Part shown: piece by piece, positions 3,073-47,245 of the stretch
Position numbering within the stretch: the first letter of the stretch is position 1
Layout of the letters: every line of letters starts with the position of its first letter
Source of the DNA: an uncultured bacterium
GTDB taxonomy: Bacteria; DAOPZR01
Length of the DNA: 64,000 bases
NCBI GenBank assembly: GCA_964517215.1
Contig: CAZFBR010000001.1
Span: 24,907-88,906 of the forward strand
Reading direction: 5' to 3'
Made by a program: the position numbers and the translations under genes
Notes under the pieces: model-generated
Told to the model about the DNA's origin: nothing
The model's input: the letters and a program-made list of their open reading frames with translations, nothing else
The model's database searches: none

Positions 3073-3148
3073 GGCGGCGTAGCCAAGTGGCTAAGGCGAC
3101 GGTTTGCAAAACCGTTATTCACCGGTTCAACTCCGGTCGCCGCCTCCA
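3073..3148 (+). tRNA. tRNA-Cys (GCA), CCA encoded
   Basis: 76 nt; 7-bp acceptor stem GGCGGCG/CGCCGCC, anticodon stem ACGGT/ACCGT with loop TTGCAAA (anticodon GCA), T-arm ACCGG-TTCAACT-CCGGT. Confidence 0.85.
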
Positions 3149-3775: not shown

Positions 3776-3851
3776 GGGCTCTTAGCTCAATGGTTAGAGC
3801 ATCGGACTCATAATCCGGCGGTTCTGGGTTCAAGTCCCGGAGGGCCCACCA
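3776..3851 (+). tRNA. tRNA with CAU anticodon (elongator Met or lysidine-type Ile2; not initiator), CCA encoded
   Basis: 76 nt; acceptor GGGCTCT/AGGGCCC, D-arm GCTC-AATGGTTA-GAGC, anticodon loop CTCATAA, T-loop TTCAAGT; the G1-C72 pair excludes initiator; resembles E. coli ileX-type more than metT. Confidence 0.8.
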
Positions 3852-4070
3852 CTTTCGCCAGTGCCGTCCGCCTGCTGTCGTTCGCCCTGGTGGCGGTGCT
3901 GCTCGCTGCCGTCGCCGTCGCGGTCAGCACCATGGTGCCGGAGAACGGCGTCCGCACCACCGCCTCGAAGTACGCTGTTTCCAAAGACGATACCCCCTAC
4001 GCCTGATCCCCCGCCGGGTTTGCGCTCCCTGCCGGCATAATGGTATTATCCCCACCGGAGGGCGTGTATT

Positions 4071-4832
4071 GTGGCGATGCTCGAAATGGCCGGGGTGTAT
4101 ACCACGCTGGAGCACAAGGAAGTGCTGCGCGGTGTCAGCTTTTCCGTCGCTGACGGCGAAACCCTGGTCATCATCGGCCGGAGCGGCACCGGCAAGAGCG
4201 TCATCCTCAAGCATCTCATCGGCCTGATGCATCCGGACCGCGGCGCCATTTTTGTCGGCGGGACCGATATTGCCGCCTTGCGCGGCCCGGCGCTGCGCAC
4301 CGCCTGCCGCCCGGTGGCGATGCTGTTCCAGAACGGCGCGCTGTTCGATTCGCTGCGGGTGTGGGAAAACGTCGGCTTTCACCTGCTCGAGAATCTTGAC
4401 CGCCCGGTGGCGGAGGTGCAGCGGGTGGTGCGCGAAAAGCTGGCGCTGGTCGACCTGCACGGCGTCGAGCAGCTCATGCCGGCGGAACTGTCGGGCGGCA
4501 TGCGCAAGCGGGTGGCGCTGGCGCGGACGCTGGCACTGGAACCGCGGGTGCTGCTGTGGGATGAACCGACGTCGGGGCTTGATCCGGTGACGTCGGACAT
4601 CATCAACCGGCTGATCGTGCGCACGCGCGAGCAGCTCGGCCTGACGTCGGTGGTCGTCACCCACGACATGACCAGCGCCTACCAGGTCGGGCAGCGGATC
4701 GCCATGCTGCATGCAGGACGCATTCACACCATCGGCACCCCGGACCGCATCCGCGCCACCACGGATCCGGTGGTGCGGCGGTTTATCACCGGCGATGCCA
4801 GCGATCTGGTCGCCGCCGGGAACGGGGAATAG
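4071..4832 (+). CDS. mlaF: ABC transporter ATP-binding protein, MlaF/Mce-type
   Basis: Walker A GRSGTGKS, signature LSGGMRKRVALARTL, Walker B LLWDEPTSGLD; directly followed by an MCE-domain protein. Confidence 0.8.
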   Translation: MAMLEMAGVYTTLEHKEVLRGVSFSVADGETLVIIGRSGTGKSVILKHLIGLMHPDRGAIFVGGTDIAALRGPALRTACRPVAMLFQNGALFDSLRVWENVGFHLLENLDRPVAEVQRVVREKLALVDLHGVEQLMPAELSGGMRKRVALARTLALEPRVLLWDEPTSGLDPVTSDIINRLIVRTREQLGLTSVVVTHDMTSAYQVGQRIAMLHAGRIHTIGTPDRIRATTDPVVRRFITGDASDLVAAGNGE

Positions 4833-5924: not shown

Positions 5925-7300
5925 CCGCCAAAAAGGCGCGGGTTGCATTCTTCTGCAGCGACTGCGGCGCCACGGCGCCCGGCTGGCTGGGCCGCTGTCC
6001 CGGCTGCGGCAAGTTCAACACCATGGTCGAGGCGCCGGCCGCGGCCGCGCCGCATCGCGCCCGCGCCGCGGAACGGCCGGCCGCGCGGGCGCTGACCCTC
6101 AGCCAGATCCCCGCCGACCAGCTGGACCGCTGGGACACCGGCTTCGGCGAGCTCAATCGCGTGCTGGGCGGCGGGCTGGTCCCCGGCTCGCTGGTGCTCA
6201 TCGGCGGCAGTCCGGGGATCGGCAAGAGCACGCTGCTGCTGCAGGCGGCGGCGGCGCTGGCCGGGCGCGGCAAACAGGTCCTCTACGCCACCGGCGAGGA
6301 ATCGGCCGGCCAGCTGGCGCTGCGCGCGCGGCGGCTCGGCATTGCGGATCCGCGCCTGCGCGTCATCGCCGAAAGCGACCTGGCGCAGATTTTTTCCGCC
6401 GCGGACGGCTGCGAGCTGCTGGTGCTCGATTCCATCCAGGCGGTGTTCCATCCCGACGTGCCCGCGCTGCCCGGCACGGTCAGCCAGATCCGCGAATGCA
6501 CCGCGCAGCTGGTGGACTGGGCCAAGCCGCGCAACACGGCGGTGTTCATCGTCGGACACGTCACCAAGGAGGGCGCGCTGGCGGGCCCGCGGCTGCTCGA
6601 GCACATGGTGGACACGGTGCTCTATTTCGACAGCGACCAGCAGCTGTTCCACCGCATCATCCGCGCGGTCAAGAACCGCTTCGGCGCCACCAATGAACTC
6701 GGCATCTTCCGCATGGTCGAGGGCGGGCTGGAGGAGGTCAGCAACCCGTCCGACCTGTTCATCAACCAGCGCCCGGAACCGATTGCCGGGACCGCGGTGG
6801 CGGCGGTGATGTCCGGTTCCCGCCCGCTGCTGTGTGAAGTGCAGGCCCTGGGCGTGCCCACGGTCTTCGGCAATCCGCGGCGGGTGGCGTCGGGCATCGA
6901 CTACAACCGCCTGCTGATGATCCTTGCCGTGCTCGAACGCCGGGCCGGCATCCCCGTCAGCACCCGTGATATCTACGTGTCAGTCACCGGCGGGCTGCGG
7001 GTCAGCGACGATCCGGGCGCGGACCTGGCGGTGGCGCTGGCCGTGGTTTCGCACCTGCGCGACCGGCCGCTGCCGGTCGGGCTGGCCGCCATCGGTGAAC
7101 TGGCGCTGTCGGGCGAGATCCTGCCCGTGCTCGGCGGCGAGACCCGGCTGCGGGAAAGCGCCAAACTCGGGTATACCCGCGCGGTCGGACCCGCGCGGCA
7201 CATGGGCGACAAGCATCCGCTCCCGTATGCAGGAGCGTATAATCTGCACGCGGCCCTGGCGGCCGCGGAACTGTTGACGAAAGGAGGTACCGACGCATGA
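5921..7300 (+). CDS. radA: DNA repair protein RadA/Sms
   Basis: N-terminal Zn ribbon CSDCGA...CPGCGKFNT, RecA-like Walker A GGSPGIGKST, KNRFG motif, Lon-like C-terminal domain; start ATGA-overlaps the mlaD stop. Confidence 0.9.
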   Translation: MTAKKARVAFFCSDCGATAPGWLGRCPGCGKFNTMVEAPAAAAPHRARAAERPAARALTLSQIPADQLDRWDTGFGELNRVLGGGLVPGSLVLIGGSPGIGKSTLLLQAAAALAGRGKQVLYATGEESAGQLALRARRLGIADPRLRVIAESDLAQIFSAADGCELLVLDSIQAVFHPDVPALPGTVSQIRECTAQLVDWAKPRNTAVFIVGHVTKEGALAGPRLLEHMVDTVLYFDSDQQLFHRIIRAVKNRFGATNELGIFRMVEGGLEEVSNPSDLFINQRPEPIAGTAVAAVMSGSRPLLCEVQALGVPTVFGNPRRVASGIDYNRLLMILAVLERRAGIPVSTRDIYVSVTGGLRVSDDPGADLAVALAVVSHLRDRPLPVGLAAIGELALSGEILPVLGGETRLRESAKLGYTRAVGPARHMGDKHPLPYAGAYNLHAALAAAELLTKGGTDA

Positions 7301-43741: not shown

Positions 43742-43889
43742 CCTTCAGATTACGCATTTGGATTTGGGTTTGATATATCATTACGAATTGACAATGGTGG
43801 TGATTGGTTTGGCACGCATCTTCATGTTGCACTGGTTGGGCAGGAATAACCAGGAAATTGGCTGCTATCACCAGTGGCGATAACGGTTT

Positions 43890-44237
43890 TTGATCAGCAC
43901 GATCGTGTTTGCGACACCGTATTGGGGATTATGCTGGCTTGATTCACAGATGGAACATATGGAAGGGAGTCCGACGGGAGCTGCTTCCGGTGATATTGGC
44001 GCATACAATTCAGCATTGGCACTCTCTCAGGTTGACGTGGCAGGCCAGACATTTCCGGTCACAACGCTCATGCAACTGTACAGTGACCATGCTCCGGGGT
44101 GGGCTGGCCCGTATATGGTAACCAATCGCGATGATGTCCGGGGCAATGAATATTCATATACCAGCAACGGCGTTTCGTATCACTGTCAATCCATGACTCC
44201 ATTTCCAACAGACACGAAACAATTCCGGGGTAATTGA
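43890..44237 (+). CDS. Orphan hypothetical protein in a low-GC islet
   Basis: 115-aa ORF (or ~96 aa from MEHMEG); no similarity recognised; compositionally atypical. Confidence 0.25.
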   Translation: MISTIVFATPYWGLCWLDSQMEHMEGSPTGAASGDIGAYNSALALSQVDVAGQTFPVTTLMQLYSDHAPGWAGPYMVTNRDDVRGNEYSYTSNGVSYHCQSMTPFPTDTKQFRGN

Positions 44238-44423
44238 ACTGCTACCCAGTGAAGCGCCCATTGCGAACCAAGCGGTGACAGGGCGTTGCGAATGGAATTC
44301 CTCGTCGGGGAAATGTGCACGTCACCACCCGGAAACAGGGCGGCTTGACGCGCCGGTACCGGCAAGCTATCGTGCGCGCATCACACCGCCAAGGTCTGAC
44401 CTGCTCCGGGGAGGGGAGGCAGC

Positions 44424-46232
44424 ATGGTATTCATTGCCGAACGCGCATACTATCGCGCGGCGTCGGGCCGCCGCCGTCTGGCAGTCCTGGCCGCGCTCAA
44501 CCGCATCAACGCGCTGGCCTGCATCAAGAGCGCGGAACACGGCTGGCTGGGCGCCAGCTTCTCCGTCGCGGAACTGCTGACCGTCCTCACCTTCGACCGG
44601 CGGGCGCGCAATGTCATCCTCTCCAAAGGGCATGCCGCCCCGATGCAGTACGCCTGCCTGTTCGGTACCGGCCGCATCGGCGCGGCACAGCTGCGCTCGT
44701 ACAAGAACGGCGCCGGCGCGCTGCAGGCCCATACCGACACCTGCACGCCGGGCATCCTCGTCAACAGCGGGTCGCTCGGCCAGGCGCTGTCCAAGGCGGC
44801 GGGCATGGCGCGGGTGGCGCCGCGCGAGGAATTCTTCGTCATTATCGGCGACGGTGAACTGCAGGAAGGGCAGAACTTCGAGGCGCTGCAGAGCATCGTG
44901 CAGCTCGGGTTGCGCAACCTGACCGTGATCCTCGACCGCAACGTGTTCCAGACCGAGTATCCGGTCGATGCCATCAAGGGGATCCGCGATTACCGGCAGG
45001 TCTTTGCCGGGTTCGGCTATACCGTGCTGGCGATCGACGGCCACGATCCGGCGGCGATCAGCGCGGCGCTGCGCCGGAAGGTGCGCGGCCAGAAACTGAT
45101 CATCGCGCAGACGCGGAAAGCGGGCGGATCGGCACTGCTGGCACCGGTGCGCGGCAAACAGCCCTGGCATGCGCAGGTCCCGGGGCGGGACCTGTACGCG
45201 GCGCTGCTGCACGAGCAGGCGGCGCTGACCGGGAATGCGCGGCTGCAAACAGCCGTCGCGGCTTTCACCGCGCGCCTGGTGCGGCAGCCGCAACCGGTCC
45301 CGCCCGCCCCGCGGTCGGGTTCCACCCGCGACCTGTTCTGGGACGCTGTGCTGCCGCATTACCGGCGCAACCGGAAGATCATGGTGCTGGACGCTGATTT
45401 GGCCAAATCCTGCGGCCTCGACCGGCTGCCGTCGCGTCCGCGCCAGTTCGTCGAGCTGGGCATCAGCGAGCAGGACATGGTCAGCTTCGCCGGCGGCTTG
45501 GCCTTGCGCGGGTACCGGCCCATCGTTAACACCTACGCGTCATTCTTCAAGCGCGCGTACGAGCAGCTTTGCGTCAACCAGTCGGAACAGGTCCCGGTGA
45601 TCTATGCGGGTCATTATGCCGGCTTCGATTATCATACCGACGGCAAGACGCATCAGTCGATCAACGATCTGTCGCTGATGCGCAGCGTCCCCGGCCTGGC
45701 GGTGTTCGAGCCGGTGACGGCGCGCCAGACCCGTCTCTATGTCGACTGGGCGCTGCGCCAGCGGACGCGCAGCAGCTATTTCCGGCTGCGGCGCACGCCG
45801 CTGCCGCTGGCGCTTGACGACCGCGCGGTGCGGCTCGATTGCCCGCTGACCGCGGGCCGCGAATTCGCCCGCTGCTTCGTCACCGGCGGCATCGTGGCCA
45901 CTGCGCTGGCGCTGCGCTGCCGGGAGGAACAGGACTTCGCGCGCTGGGGCGTGCTGGTCCAGGGCGCCTACGGCCTGCCGCTCGACCGGCCGTGGTATGC
46001 ACGGCGGCTGGCGCGCACGCGGGAGATCGTGGTCCTCGAGGACAATTTCCGGCAGGGGGGGCTATACGAGTTCACCTGCGCGCTGGTGAATGAGCTCGGC
46101 CTGCGGGTGCGGGTGCGCGCGCTGGCGCCGGACTTTTTCGGCTGGTCGTTCCGCACGTTCGACGACTGTCTGCGTCATTTCGGATTCACGCCCGACGGGG
46201 TGCGTGCTGTGCGGCGGGATGGCCGCGCATGA
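44424..46232 (+). CDS. Transketolase-family protein with fused TPP-binding (N) and pyrimidine-binding/C-terminal sections
   Basis: SKGHAAP, NSGSLGQALSKAAG, IIGDGELQEGQNFEALQ, LTVILDRN (N-part); FVELGISEQDMVSFAGGLALRGYRPIVNTYASFF...AYEQL (pyr domain). Confidence 0.7.
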   Translation: MVFIAERAYYRAASGRRRLAVLAALNRINALACIKSAEHGWLGASFSVAELLTVLTFDRRARNVILSKGHAAPMQYACLFGTGRIGAAQLRSYKNGAGALQAHTDTCTPGILVNSGSLGQALSKAAGMARVAPREEFFVIIGDGELQEGQNFEALQSIVQLGLRNLTVILDRNVFQTEYPVDAIKGIRDYRQVFAGFGYTVLAIDGHDPAAISAALRRKVRGQKLIIAQTRKAGGSALLAPVRGKQPWHAQVPGRDLYAALLHEQAALTGNARLQTAVAAFTARLVRQPQPVPPAPRSGSTRDLFWDAVLPHYRRNRKIMVLDADLAKSCGLDRLPSRPRQFVELGISEQDMVSFAGGLALRGYRPIVNTYASFFKRAYEQLCVNQSEQVPVIYAGHYAGFDYHTDGKTHQSINDLSLMRSVPGLAVFEPVTARQTRLYVDWALRQRTRSSYFRLRRTPLPLALDDRAVRLDCPLTAGREFARCFVTGGIVATALALRCREEQDFARWGVLVQGAYGLPLDRPWYARRLARTREIVVLEDNFRQGGLYEFTCALVNELGLRVRVRALAPDFFGWSFRTFDDCLRHFGFTPDGVRAVRRDGRA

Positions 46233-46249
46233 CCGTTGCTACCATGGTG

Positions 46250-46430
46250 TCTCTCACCGGTGCTGCAGTCACCGGCGCCGGGAGTCGCCGGTGACCGCCG
46301 CGACAGTGTCGCGCCTCGCCCGGGCTGCAGTCACCGGCGCCAGGAGCGGCCGGTGACCGCCGCGACGGTGTCGCGCCTCGCCTGGGCTGCAGTCACCGGC
46401 GCCAGGAGCCGCCGGTGACCGCCGCCGAAC
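46250..46430. repeat. Tandem direct repeat, ~61-63 bp x ~2.7, each unit containing a 9-bp-stem hairpin GTCACCGGC...GCCGGTGAC
   Basis: Units start at ~46263, ~46326, ~46387 (GCTGCAGTCACCGGCGCC[A/G]GGAG..GCCGGTGACCGCCGCGAC[A/G]GTGTCGCGCCTCGCC[C/T]GG); lies between the transketolase-like stop and the exonuclease start. Confidence 0.8.
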
Positions 46431-47245
46431 TCTGCCGCACGGAACCGTCGCTGCTGGGTGAGCGGCTGCAGCTGGGATCGAAGAAACAATGCGCGATCTG
46501 CGGCGGGCGGCTGATCTGCAAGCAGGTCATCGCCGCCCGGCATCGCGGCCACCGGGACCAGCAGCCGTTCTACGCCTGCGCCGGCTGCCAGCGGTCGCTG
46601 GCCCGGTCGCACGGCAACCTGGTCAATGAAGACCATTTCATTGACACCCTGAAGAAGCTGAAGCAATTCAAGAGCGTGACGATCATCGACCTGGAAACCT
46701 CGGGACTGCTCAACCTCGGCGGCGAGATTATCGAGATCGGCGCGGTGAAGTACCGCTTGTCGCCGAAACTGGCGCTGGACGGCCTGTTCTTCCAGCGGAT
46801 CAATCCGCCGACGCGCGAATTCGATCCGATCGCCATGCGGGTTAACGGTATCGATCCCGCATCGCTCGCGGCGGCGCCGCCGCCCGAAGAAGTGCTGCCG
46901 AAGTTCCTCGCGTTCATCAACCATTCGCTGATTGTCGCGCATCGCGCGCTGTTCGACGCCGGCTTCCTCAATTGGTACTGCGACCGCTATGGCTACCCGC
47001 GGCCGCAGAATCCCGTGCTTGACACCTTCAGGATCGGTCAGCAGCTTTACGGCGAAGACGTGCGGCTCGACGGACTGCTCAAGCGCAACCATATCCGCGT
47101 CCCGGTTTCGCGCCACAAGTCGTGGGTTGACTGCCTGACCACCAGCGAGGTATTTTTCAAAATGGCGCGTTGGTATACGCTGGCCGAGCTGAACCCGCGC
47201 CCCTTCGCCGAATTCGACCCGTCGCTCTACAAGCCCGTCCGCTGA
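46415..47245 (+). CDS. DEDDh 3'-5' exonuclease (DnaQ-like) with N-terminal Cys4 Zn-ribbon
   Basis: CAICGGRL...CAGCQRS zinc ribbon; Exo I TIIDLETSGL, Exo II region FLAFINHSLIVAHRALFDAGFL, Exo III H-x4-D (SRHKSWVD). Confidence 0.65.
   Translation: MTAAELCRTEPSLLGERLQLGSKKQCAICGGRLICKQVIAARHRGHRDQQPFYACAGCQRSLARSHGNLVNEDHFIDTLKKLKQFKSVTIIDLETSGLLNLGGEIIEIGAVKYRLSPKLALDGLFFQRINPPTREFDPIAMRVNGIDPASLAAAPPPEEVLPKFLAFINHSLIVAHRALFDAGFLNWYCDRYGYPRPQNPVLDTFRIGQQLYGEDVRLDGLLKRNHIRVPVSRHKSWVDCLTTSEVFFKMARWYTLAELNPRPFAEFDPSLYKPVR

Follow-up and report, generated by a model that had tools for sequence, protein, structure and literature searches.

A lineage-specific, MIRU-like minisatellite between a transketolase-like gene and an exonuclease gene of an uncultured bacterium, and its possible translational relay

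In an uncultured bacterium, a transketolase-like gene and an exonuclease gene are separated by a short tandem repeat whose last, partial copy runs into the exonuclease start, and this arrangement raises two questions: where such a repeat came from, and what it means for translation of the gene behind it. The locus lies in a 64-kb stretch (64,000 nt, here called the window) of contig CAZFBR010000001.1. An earlier, sequence-only reading had described units of 61 to 63 bp in about 2.7 copies, each with a strong internal hairpin, and had offered a stacked terminator or attenuator, a REP-like element, or a recently expanded minisatellite as possible explanations.

Tandem Repeats Finder places the array at positions 46251 to 46425 (period 62, 2.8 copies, 92% matches, score 247); the next-best array in the window scores only 62, and the array is the sole substantial repeat of the 64 kb. 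A gap-free repeat search recovers copies at 46230, 46292, and 46354, the second and third each lying exactly 62 nt beyond the one before, and in this register the array consists of three full 62-bp units on the plus strand (46229 to 46414, 186 bp) followed by an 11-bp partial copy. Unit 0 (46229 to 46290) is a diverged copy that opens with an ATGA junction; unit 1 (46291 to 46352) is recovered by nhmmer at an E value of 5e-17; and unit 2 (46353 to 46414) is found by Tandem Repeats Finder, the gap-free search, blastn-short, and nhmmer alike. The partial fourth copy, GTGACCGCCGC (46415 to 46425, plus strand), is the same in all units and coincides with the first 11 nt of the exonuclease gene. 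The tandem repeat reported at the exonuclease start is therefore real, as the program call and the identical assemblies described below both attest; its period is fixed at 62 rather than 61 to 63, its copies are three full units plus 11 nt, and its supposed beginning 20 bp past the transketolase-like stop gives way to a start at 46229, in an ATG that overlaps that stop.

Units 1 and 2 are 95% identical. Unit 0 shares 78% identity overall with the other two, and its divergence is unevenly distributed along the unit: the hairpin lead and 5' arm are identical to those of units 1 and 2 at 15 of 15 positions, compared with 12 of 23 in the variable 5' part (the 23 nt that precede the hairpin lead). 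Despite this 22% divergence, unit 0 keeps the exact length of 62 nt. The array is base-for-base identical in the window, in JGI 3300010352 (L003/L016), and in ENA ERZ795026 (L017), and a Logan contig (L015, from ERR7570000) begins within unit 1. Such agreement between three independent assemblies excludes an assembly artefact. All three carry three units, so that the comparison of copy number across strains proposed in the sequence-only reading returns no variation among the available assemblies, which are at least 99.9% identical overall and sample little divergence. A further contig, L008 (Ga0116171_10194246, positions 1 to 320), was considered as a copy-number variant and dropped: it is 99.6% identical to the window from position 46573 onward and unrelated upstream of that point. 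The break falls inside the Zn-ribbon coding region of the exonuclease gene; either the contig was assembled as a chimera, or the DNA of another sample is genuinely rearranged at this point.

The upstream gene (44424 to 46232, plus strand) encodes a 602-aa transketolase/DXS-like TPP enzyme (TK; Pfam Transketolase_N and Transket_pyr), whose stop codon, TGA at 46230 to 46232, overlaps the ATG at 46229 and sits at the homologous position in its orthologs. The downstream gene (46415 to 47245, plus strand) encodes a 276-aa protein with an N-terminal CxxC...CxxC Zn-ribbon followed by a DEDDh 3'-5' exonuclease domain (Pfam PF00929, RNase_T). Its N terminus, (M/V)TAAELCR, is collinear from residue 1 with six full-length orthologs, no in-frame start exists upstream of the GTG at 46415, and the partial repeat copy GTGACCGCCGC matches the ortholog exonuclease starts GTGACGGCCGC and ATGACCGCCGC; by this comparison, GTG 46415 is the true exonuclease start. 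The exonuclease family is very small, with about six full-length relatives in a search of a 5.8-billion-protein database, and the association of a TK-like gene with a Zn-ribbon/DEDDh exonuclease, although odd as a pairing, is a conserved 4-nt-overlap pair within a very small clade.

Relatives' loci were defined as the DNA around relatives of both the exonuclease and the upstream gene, and five of them keep the pair (L001, L002, L018, L019, and L020). In all five the genes overlap by 4 nt and the spacer is absent: the junction reads ATGA in L001 and L002 and GTGA in the closer L018, L019, and L020, whose TK proteins show 82 to 83% (L018 and L019) and 76% (L020) identity to that of the window. 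Aligned with the orthologs, the window differs at the junction by an insertion of exactly 186 nt, which follows ATGACCG and has a TGACCG direct repeat on either side; 186 bp between the two genes occur only in the window's lineage. Judged from these alignments, the array is a lineage-specific insertion, and the direct NTGA overlap kept in all sampled relatives is the ancestral state. NTGA overlaps are also frequent among the gene calls of the array-bearing lineage. Of the explanations first proposed, the recently expanded minisatellite is borne out, both by the absence of the array in relatives and by the near-identity of units 1 and 2. The lineage itself is an isolated one: the host's LysS is identical to that of a TPA MAG labelled "bacterium", 72% identical to that of one other MAG, and at most 56% identical to everything else, with matches in many non-actinobacterial phyla. 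On this protein, the host is a deep, poorly sampled, non-actinobacterial lineage.

The composition of the unit bears on how the insertion arose. A manual count finds 15 of 17 positions shared between the 3' end of a unit together with the next start (CGCCG-GTGACCGCCGC) and the native junction of the closest relatives (CGCCC-GTGACGGCCGC), and the units therefore contain a copy of that junction. The remainder, about 45 nt bearing the 5' arm of the hairpin and an (A/G)GGAG Shine-Dalgarno (SD) motif, has no detectable source locally. At 15 of 17 positions, the 5' arm, GGCTGCAGTCACCGGCG, is the reverse complement of the region around the native start, and a fold-back or template-switch origin would fit this arm. 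Derivation of the unit from the 3' end of the upstream gene (GACGGGGTGCGCGCC...GGAGG), a look-alike by eye, was rejected after Smith-Waterman comparison with shuffled sequences (p = 0.05 to 0.9 over nine comparisons).

The period of 62 is equal to 3 x 21 - 1, and each unit forms a 21-codon mini-ORF. Because the period is of the form 3n-1, the TGA closing each mini-ORF overlaps the GTG that follows, and the two genes are linked by an unbroken NTGA chain of four successive junctions (TK to uORF0, uORF0 to uORF1, uORF1 to uORF2, and uORF2 to the exonuclease), which read in translation as ATGA at 46229 and GTGA at 46291, 46353, and 46415. Mini-ORF 0 (46229 to 46294, plus strand, encoding MTVATMVSLTGAAVTGAGSRR and a stop) begins with the ATG that overlaps the TK stop and ends in TGA 46292 to 46294, overlapping GTG 46291; mini-ORF 1 (46291 to 46356, plus strand, encoding VTAATVSRLARAAVTGARSGR and a stop) has a GTGA overlap at both ends, its TGA 46354 to 46356 lying on GTG 46353; and mini-ORF 2 (46353 to 46418, plus strand, encoding VTAATVSRLAWAAVTGARSRR and a stop) ends in TGA 46416 to 46418, which overlaps the exonuclease GTG at 46415. 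The peptide VTAATVSRLA[R/W]AAVTGARS[G/R]R given in the sequence-only reading is correct by translation, and its frame is indeed discontinuous with that of the exonuclease; what had been overlooked is the chain of overlapping TGA and GTG codons.

Taken by themselves, the open frames carry little information. At 66% GC, 72% of all 20-codon windows in this sequence are free of stops, and between 71 and 86% of units are still open after shuffling; the prior for a period of the form 3n-1 is 1/3. Together, open frames and a 3n-1 period are expected by chance roughly 0.2 of the time, or in one case in five. Since a sequence this rich in GC is expected to have open frames anyway, these were not counted as statistical evidence for a relay. 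The GC3 of the mini-ORF frames lacks a coding-type signature, the mini-peptides have no Pfam match, and one synonymous and two nonsynonymous changes separate units 1 and 2, so that these sequences give no sign of peptide selection. The mini-peptides themselves are probably irrelevant. The ATG at 46229 and the exonuclease GTG also share a frame (186 nt, or 62 codons) with one in-frame stop, TGA 46292 to 46294; reading through it would lengthen the exonuclease by 62 residues at its N terminus. The shared frame is probably a mere consequence of three -1 shifts.

Every unit contains a hairpin of the form GTCACCGGCG-N8-CGCCGGTGAC (in unit 1, a 9-bp stem with a G.G at its top), in agreement with the strong internal hairpins first reported. 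Hairpin 0 (46268 to 46295, plus strand) has a 10-bp stem and the loop CCGGGAGT (-23.6 kcal/mol, z -2.84), with an SD-like GGGAG at 46280 to 46284 in the loop and GTG 46291 in the 3' arm. Hairpin 1 (46330 to 46357, plus strand; 9-bp stem, -22.3 kcal/mol, z -2.44) holds AGGAG at 46342 to 46346 in its loop and GTG 46353 in its 3' arm, and hairpin 2 (46392 to 46419, plus strand; 10-bp stem, -22.8 kcal/mol, z -2.84) holds AGGAG at 46404 to 46408 in its loop and the exonuclease start, GTG 46415, in its 3' arm. An (A/G)GGAG motif thus lies 6 nt upstream of every GTG, inside an 8-nt loop; an SD-like motif at this distance before the start arises in 6 to 8% of composition-matched shuffles, and it is retained in the diverged unit 0. 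Single hairpins range from -22.3 to -23.6 kcal/mol (z -2.4 to -2.8) and are equaled by 2 to 4 of 200 shuffles, whereas the 236-nt region folded whole is not unusually stable (z -1.2) and a second small hairpin, GCGAC-NGT-GTCGC, is not significant: individual hairpins stand out, and the region as a whole does not. The stems are 100% conserved across the three copies, with every hairpin difference falling in the loop or the top pair, and being invariant they offer no covariation to see.

From these features we consider it reasonably probable that the array is a lineage-specific, intercistronic minisatellite that duplicates a gene junction, is MIRU-like in its working, and has been tolerated because translation is relayed across it. 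In the proposed sequence of events, the ancestral TK stop codon overlapped the exonuclease start, and three 62-bp units were inserted right after ATGACCG. A ribosome ending at each TGA would already have melted the hairpin that holds the overlapping GTG; the terminating ribosome could then reinitiate, or a fresh 30S subunit could bind the SD motif in the loop, and the next mini-ORF would be translated. Translation would in this way be passed from junction to junction across 186 nt to the exonuclease start, which a hairpin of about -23 kcal/mol would otherwise keep inaccessible, and continuous translation would keep the 186 nt from being naked RNA. Each added link would probably cost some efficiency, so that exonuclease output could be adjusted through copy number without being shut off altogether. 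Since any copy number would preserve the relay, such arrays could expand. A functional relay is plausible, and our confidence in it is only moderate: the SD motif in every unit, the length of unit 0, the invariant stems, and the ancestral overlap coupling lend it more weight, and against it, the last unit supplies a good SD motif of the exonuclease's own, from which relay-independent translation could proceed. Most likely, the array is a tolerated, possibly expression-damping product of duplication and not a dedicated regulator. That hairpin-gated mini-ORFs form a working relay here, and that a MIRU-type element was born by NTGA duplication outside the mycobacteria, is a conjunction we advance only tentatively.

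The main rival to a relay is a neutral, recent slippage duplication, in which the exonuclease is translated alone from AGGAG-N6-GTG, the NTGA phasing is a by-product, and the repeat plays no part in coupling. The chance level of the open frames and period given above, together with the absence of both a coding signature and peptide conservation, is in keeping with such a duplication, as is the 95% identity of units 1 and 2, by which they are young. However, independent initiation should be difficult at a start codon that lies within the 3' arm of a hairpin of some -23 kcal/mol, unit 0 has kept its exact length, SD motif, stem, and open frame in spite of its divergence, and five relatives conserve coupling by overlap; we regard neutrality as rather unlikely. 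A different kind of origin, from a REP, MITE, or MIRU-type mobile family with sites across this genome, one member of which inserted with a TGACCG target duplication and was then amplified locally, is suggested by the direct repeats flanking the insertion, by the GC-rich palindromic core of the unit, by the approximately 45 nt without a local source, and by the like pattern of empty and filled sites with short direct repeats in MIRUs (PMC3184786). Yet no other copy of the unit, even a diverged one, was found in the 64-kb window by blastn-short, gap-free repeats, or nhmmer with --max, nor in 97 kb of related loci (20 loci). The exact hairpin core has no match in JGI metagenome contigs or viral contigs and one among 185,579 species genomes (in Ornithinimicrobium sediminis), in collections that exclude the source genome and a metagenome set from which the array-bearing JGI contig is also absent. 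A REP-like density predicts several copies per 64 kb, and here both the search for the unit elsewhere in the genome that the sequence-only reading had called for, which found none within the window, and the public collections, with their one chance match, tell against the REP-like element it had suggested. At the density of MIRUs (about one locus per 100 kb), however, 64 kb has no power to show dispersal. A mobile family strikes us as improbable.

The O. sediminis match (L007, NZ_JAJSDQ010000010.1, 6127 to 6166) comprises the 28-nt core with AGGAG in the loop, set within a longer palindrome with a 16-bp stem, and falls inside a minus-strand ORF, in the signal-peptide region of a secreted protein; we judge it a chance palindrome.

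The remaining readings assign the hairpins a role in RNA or see in the array another class of element. Acting on the mRNA, as barriers to 3'-5' exonucleases or as RNase III/E sites, three strong hairpins between two cistrons could set the stabilities of those cistrons in the manner of REP/BIME elements, and REPs play such a role in some operons (PMC3184786); but translation of the mini-ORFs, if there is any, would melt the hairpins with every ribosome, and relatives manage without the spacer, which leaves this role very improbable. Stacked intrinsic terminators, or an attenuator, halting transcription before the exonuclease gene were proposed from the GC-rich stems right after the stop codon. 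No stem is followed by a U-tract (the next bases are CCGCCGC), and a consensus scan found no terminator-like or promoter-like site in 46229 to 46425. The nearest promoter-like sites lie upstream of the TK gene (44345) and of lysS (47336), leaving the exonuclease gene without one of its own in the array, and in relatives the pair is overlap-coupled; the terminator proposal fails on these grounds and is scarcely credible. Finally, the period resembles that of a CRISPR repeat plus spacer, the array draws weak matches to Rfam CRISPR-DR20 (18.8 bits, E 0.69), and a radical-SAM gene 2.5 kb upstream could bring to mind tandem small-peptide genes such as RiPP precursors. Rfam returns nothing on the array at E <= 10 beyond subthreshold CRISPR-DR and microRNA noise, the CRISPR-DR20 score is far under its gathering score of 42, and the inter-hairpin segments that would be spacers are identical at 21 of 23 positions between units 1 and 2, which together rule out a CRISPR array. 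The peptides, for their part, match no Pfam family, show no conservation from unit to unit, where they differ nonsynonymously, and do not occur in any relative, so that a mini CRISPR-like array or a RiPP locus is effectively refuted already.

Among known systems, the closest in architecture are the mycobacterial interspersed repetitive units (MIRUs) of Supply et al. (1997), which are summarized as tandem units of 40 to 100 bp lying mostly between the genes of operons (PMC3184786, PMC2734929, PMC4213456). MIRU units contain small ORFs whose ends overlap the adjacent genes, and their internal inverted repeats are GC-rich; short direct repeats flank the insertions, a site that is filled in one species can be empty in a related one, and about 41 loci are known in Mycobacterium tuberculosis H37Rv (PMC3184786, PMC2734929). 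The rnc-fpg gap, for instance, is 1 to 6 bp in several nontuberculous species (M. smegmatis and M. marinum) and 279 to 358 bp in the M. tuberculosis complex (PMC2734929), and the senX3-regX3 array has three units, either all of 77 bp or one of 53 bp beside two of 77 bp (PMC4213456). The array described here likewise places three 62-bp units between co-oriented genes that overlap in relatives, with small ORFs in the same orientation that overlap the neighboring stop and start, an NTGA junction that is empty in five relatives and filled here, GC-rich inverted repeats, and short direct repeats at the insertion; and unit lengths are of the form 3n-1 in both (77 and 53 bp in senX3-regX3, 62 bp here). 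The array is, by analogy, MIRU-like in every architectural respect tested. It differs in that its host is unrelated and non-actinobacterial rather than mycobacterial, in that one locus is known (neither the 64-kb window nor public collections hold a second copy), in that no variation in copy number, such as MIRUs show between strains, was seen among the available, nearly identical assemblies, and in that its unit carries a copy of the local gene junction. With the junction copy in its unit, the array may have arisen in place rather than by transposition. Because the host is unrelated, neither dispersal nor copy-number variation was seen in the sequences available, the comparison is one of architecture, and the unit includes a junction copy, we do not file the array as a MIRU. 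No paper on MIRU-like relay repeats outside the mycobacteria was found in the literature searched, which is not proof of their absence.

Comparison with simpler coupling devices gives a similar picture. The NTGA overlap is the commonest translational coupling motif, and of its two modes, in which the ribosome unfolds structure at the downstream ribosome-binding site (RBS) or the terminating ribosome reinitiates, both are supported (PMC12548453). The locus resembles such pairs in its four consecutive NTGA junctions, each with an SD motif upstream and a start codon in inhibitory structure, and in the direct overlap that five relatives retain as the ancestral form; it differs in that coupling here would be relayed via three 21-codon mini-ORFs instead of passing directly from gene to gene. 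Leader peptides and uORFs, such as the mgtA intergenic uORF (PMC8092293), also consist of a short ORF directly before a gene whose RBS is sequestered, and the array's mini-ORFs stand directly upstream of a gene with a structured RBS. Leaders, however, are conserved single ORFs with a sensing function, whereas the mini-ORFs are young duplicates, unconserved in relatives, with no stalling or sensing motif. REP and BIME elements share with the array short GC-rich palindromes in intercistronic positions that can be tandemly clustered. REPs, whose host genomes carry an associated RAYT (Y1) transposase, occur in hundreds of dispersed copies, are not ORF-phased, and lack SD-plus-start modules; the array, by contrast, is ORF-phased with an SD motif and start, and has no extra copy in 64 kb.

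To specialists, the array should come as no surprise: it is a tidy, fairly ordinary MIRU-like minisatellite in an uncultured lineage, and, as what appears to be a single lineage-specific event, it opens no new field. If the relay is real, the MIRU architecture would not be a mycobacterial oddity but would arise wherever a repeat lands in an overlap-coupled junction, and only 3n-1 units with an SD motif, a start, and an overlapping stop would keep the downstream gene expressed. "Relay minisatellites" would then be a general way for operon junctions to tolerate repeat expansion and perhaps to be tuned by it. Such a locus would also offer a small natural system in which the reinitiation and RNA-unfolding models of coupling could be put to the test (with 0, 1, 2, or 3 units), and it would remind annotators that a repeat labelled "intergenic" may consist of mini-ORFs translated one after another.

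Several observations concern the surroundings of the locus and its counterparts in relatives. In L020, the public exonuclease call starts at a downstream ATG, and the GTGA overlap start (VTAAELCRVEPS...) lies 45 nt upstream (4219 to 4267); this ortholog is likely misannotated at its 5' end. In L018, the 83% relative, a ParE/RelB toxin-antitoxin pair (4020 to 4483) occurs right after the exonuclease gene, where the window has lysS. Upstream of the TK-like gene, between it and a radical-SAM/wHTH gene, is a 680-nt gene-free gap (43742 to 44423) with a GC content of 0.47 to 0.53, versus 0.66 for the window; it has no Rfam match (E <= 1), contains a 115-aa ORF (43890 to 44237) without a Pfam match, and holds a promoter-like site at 44345 to 44373. 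L018, L019, and L020 have a divergent TPR gene in its place, by which the segment is lineage-specific, and it is possibly foreign DNA. The only matches in the window at the Rfam gathering level are two plus-strand tRNA genes, at 3073 to 3145 and 3776 to 3848.
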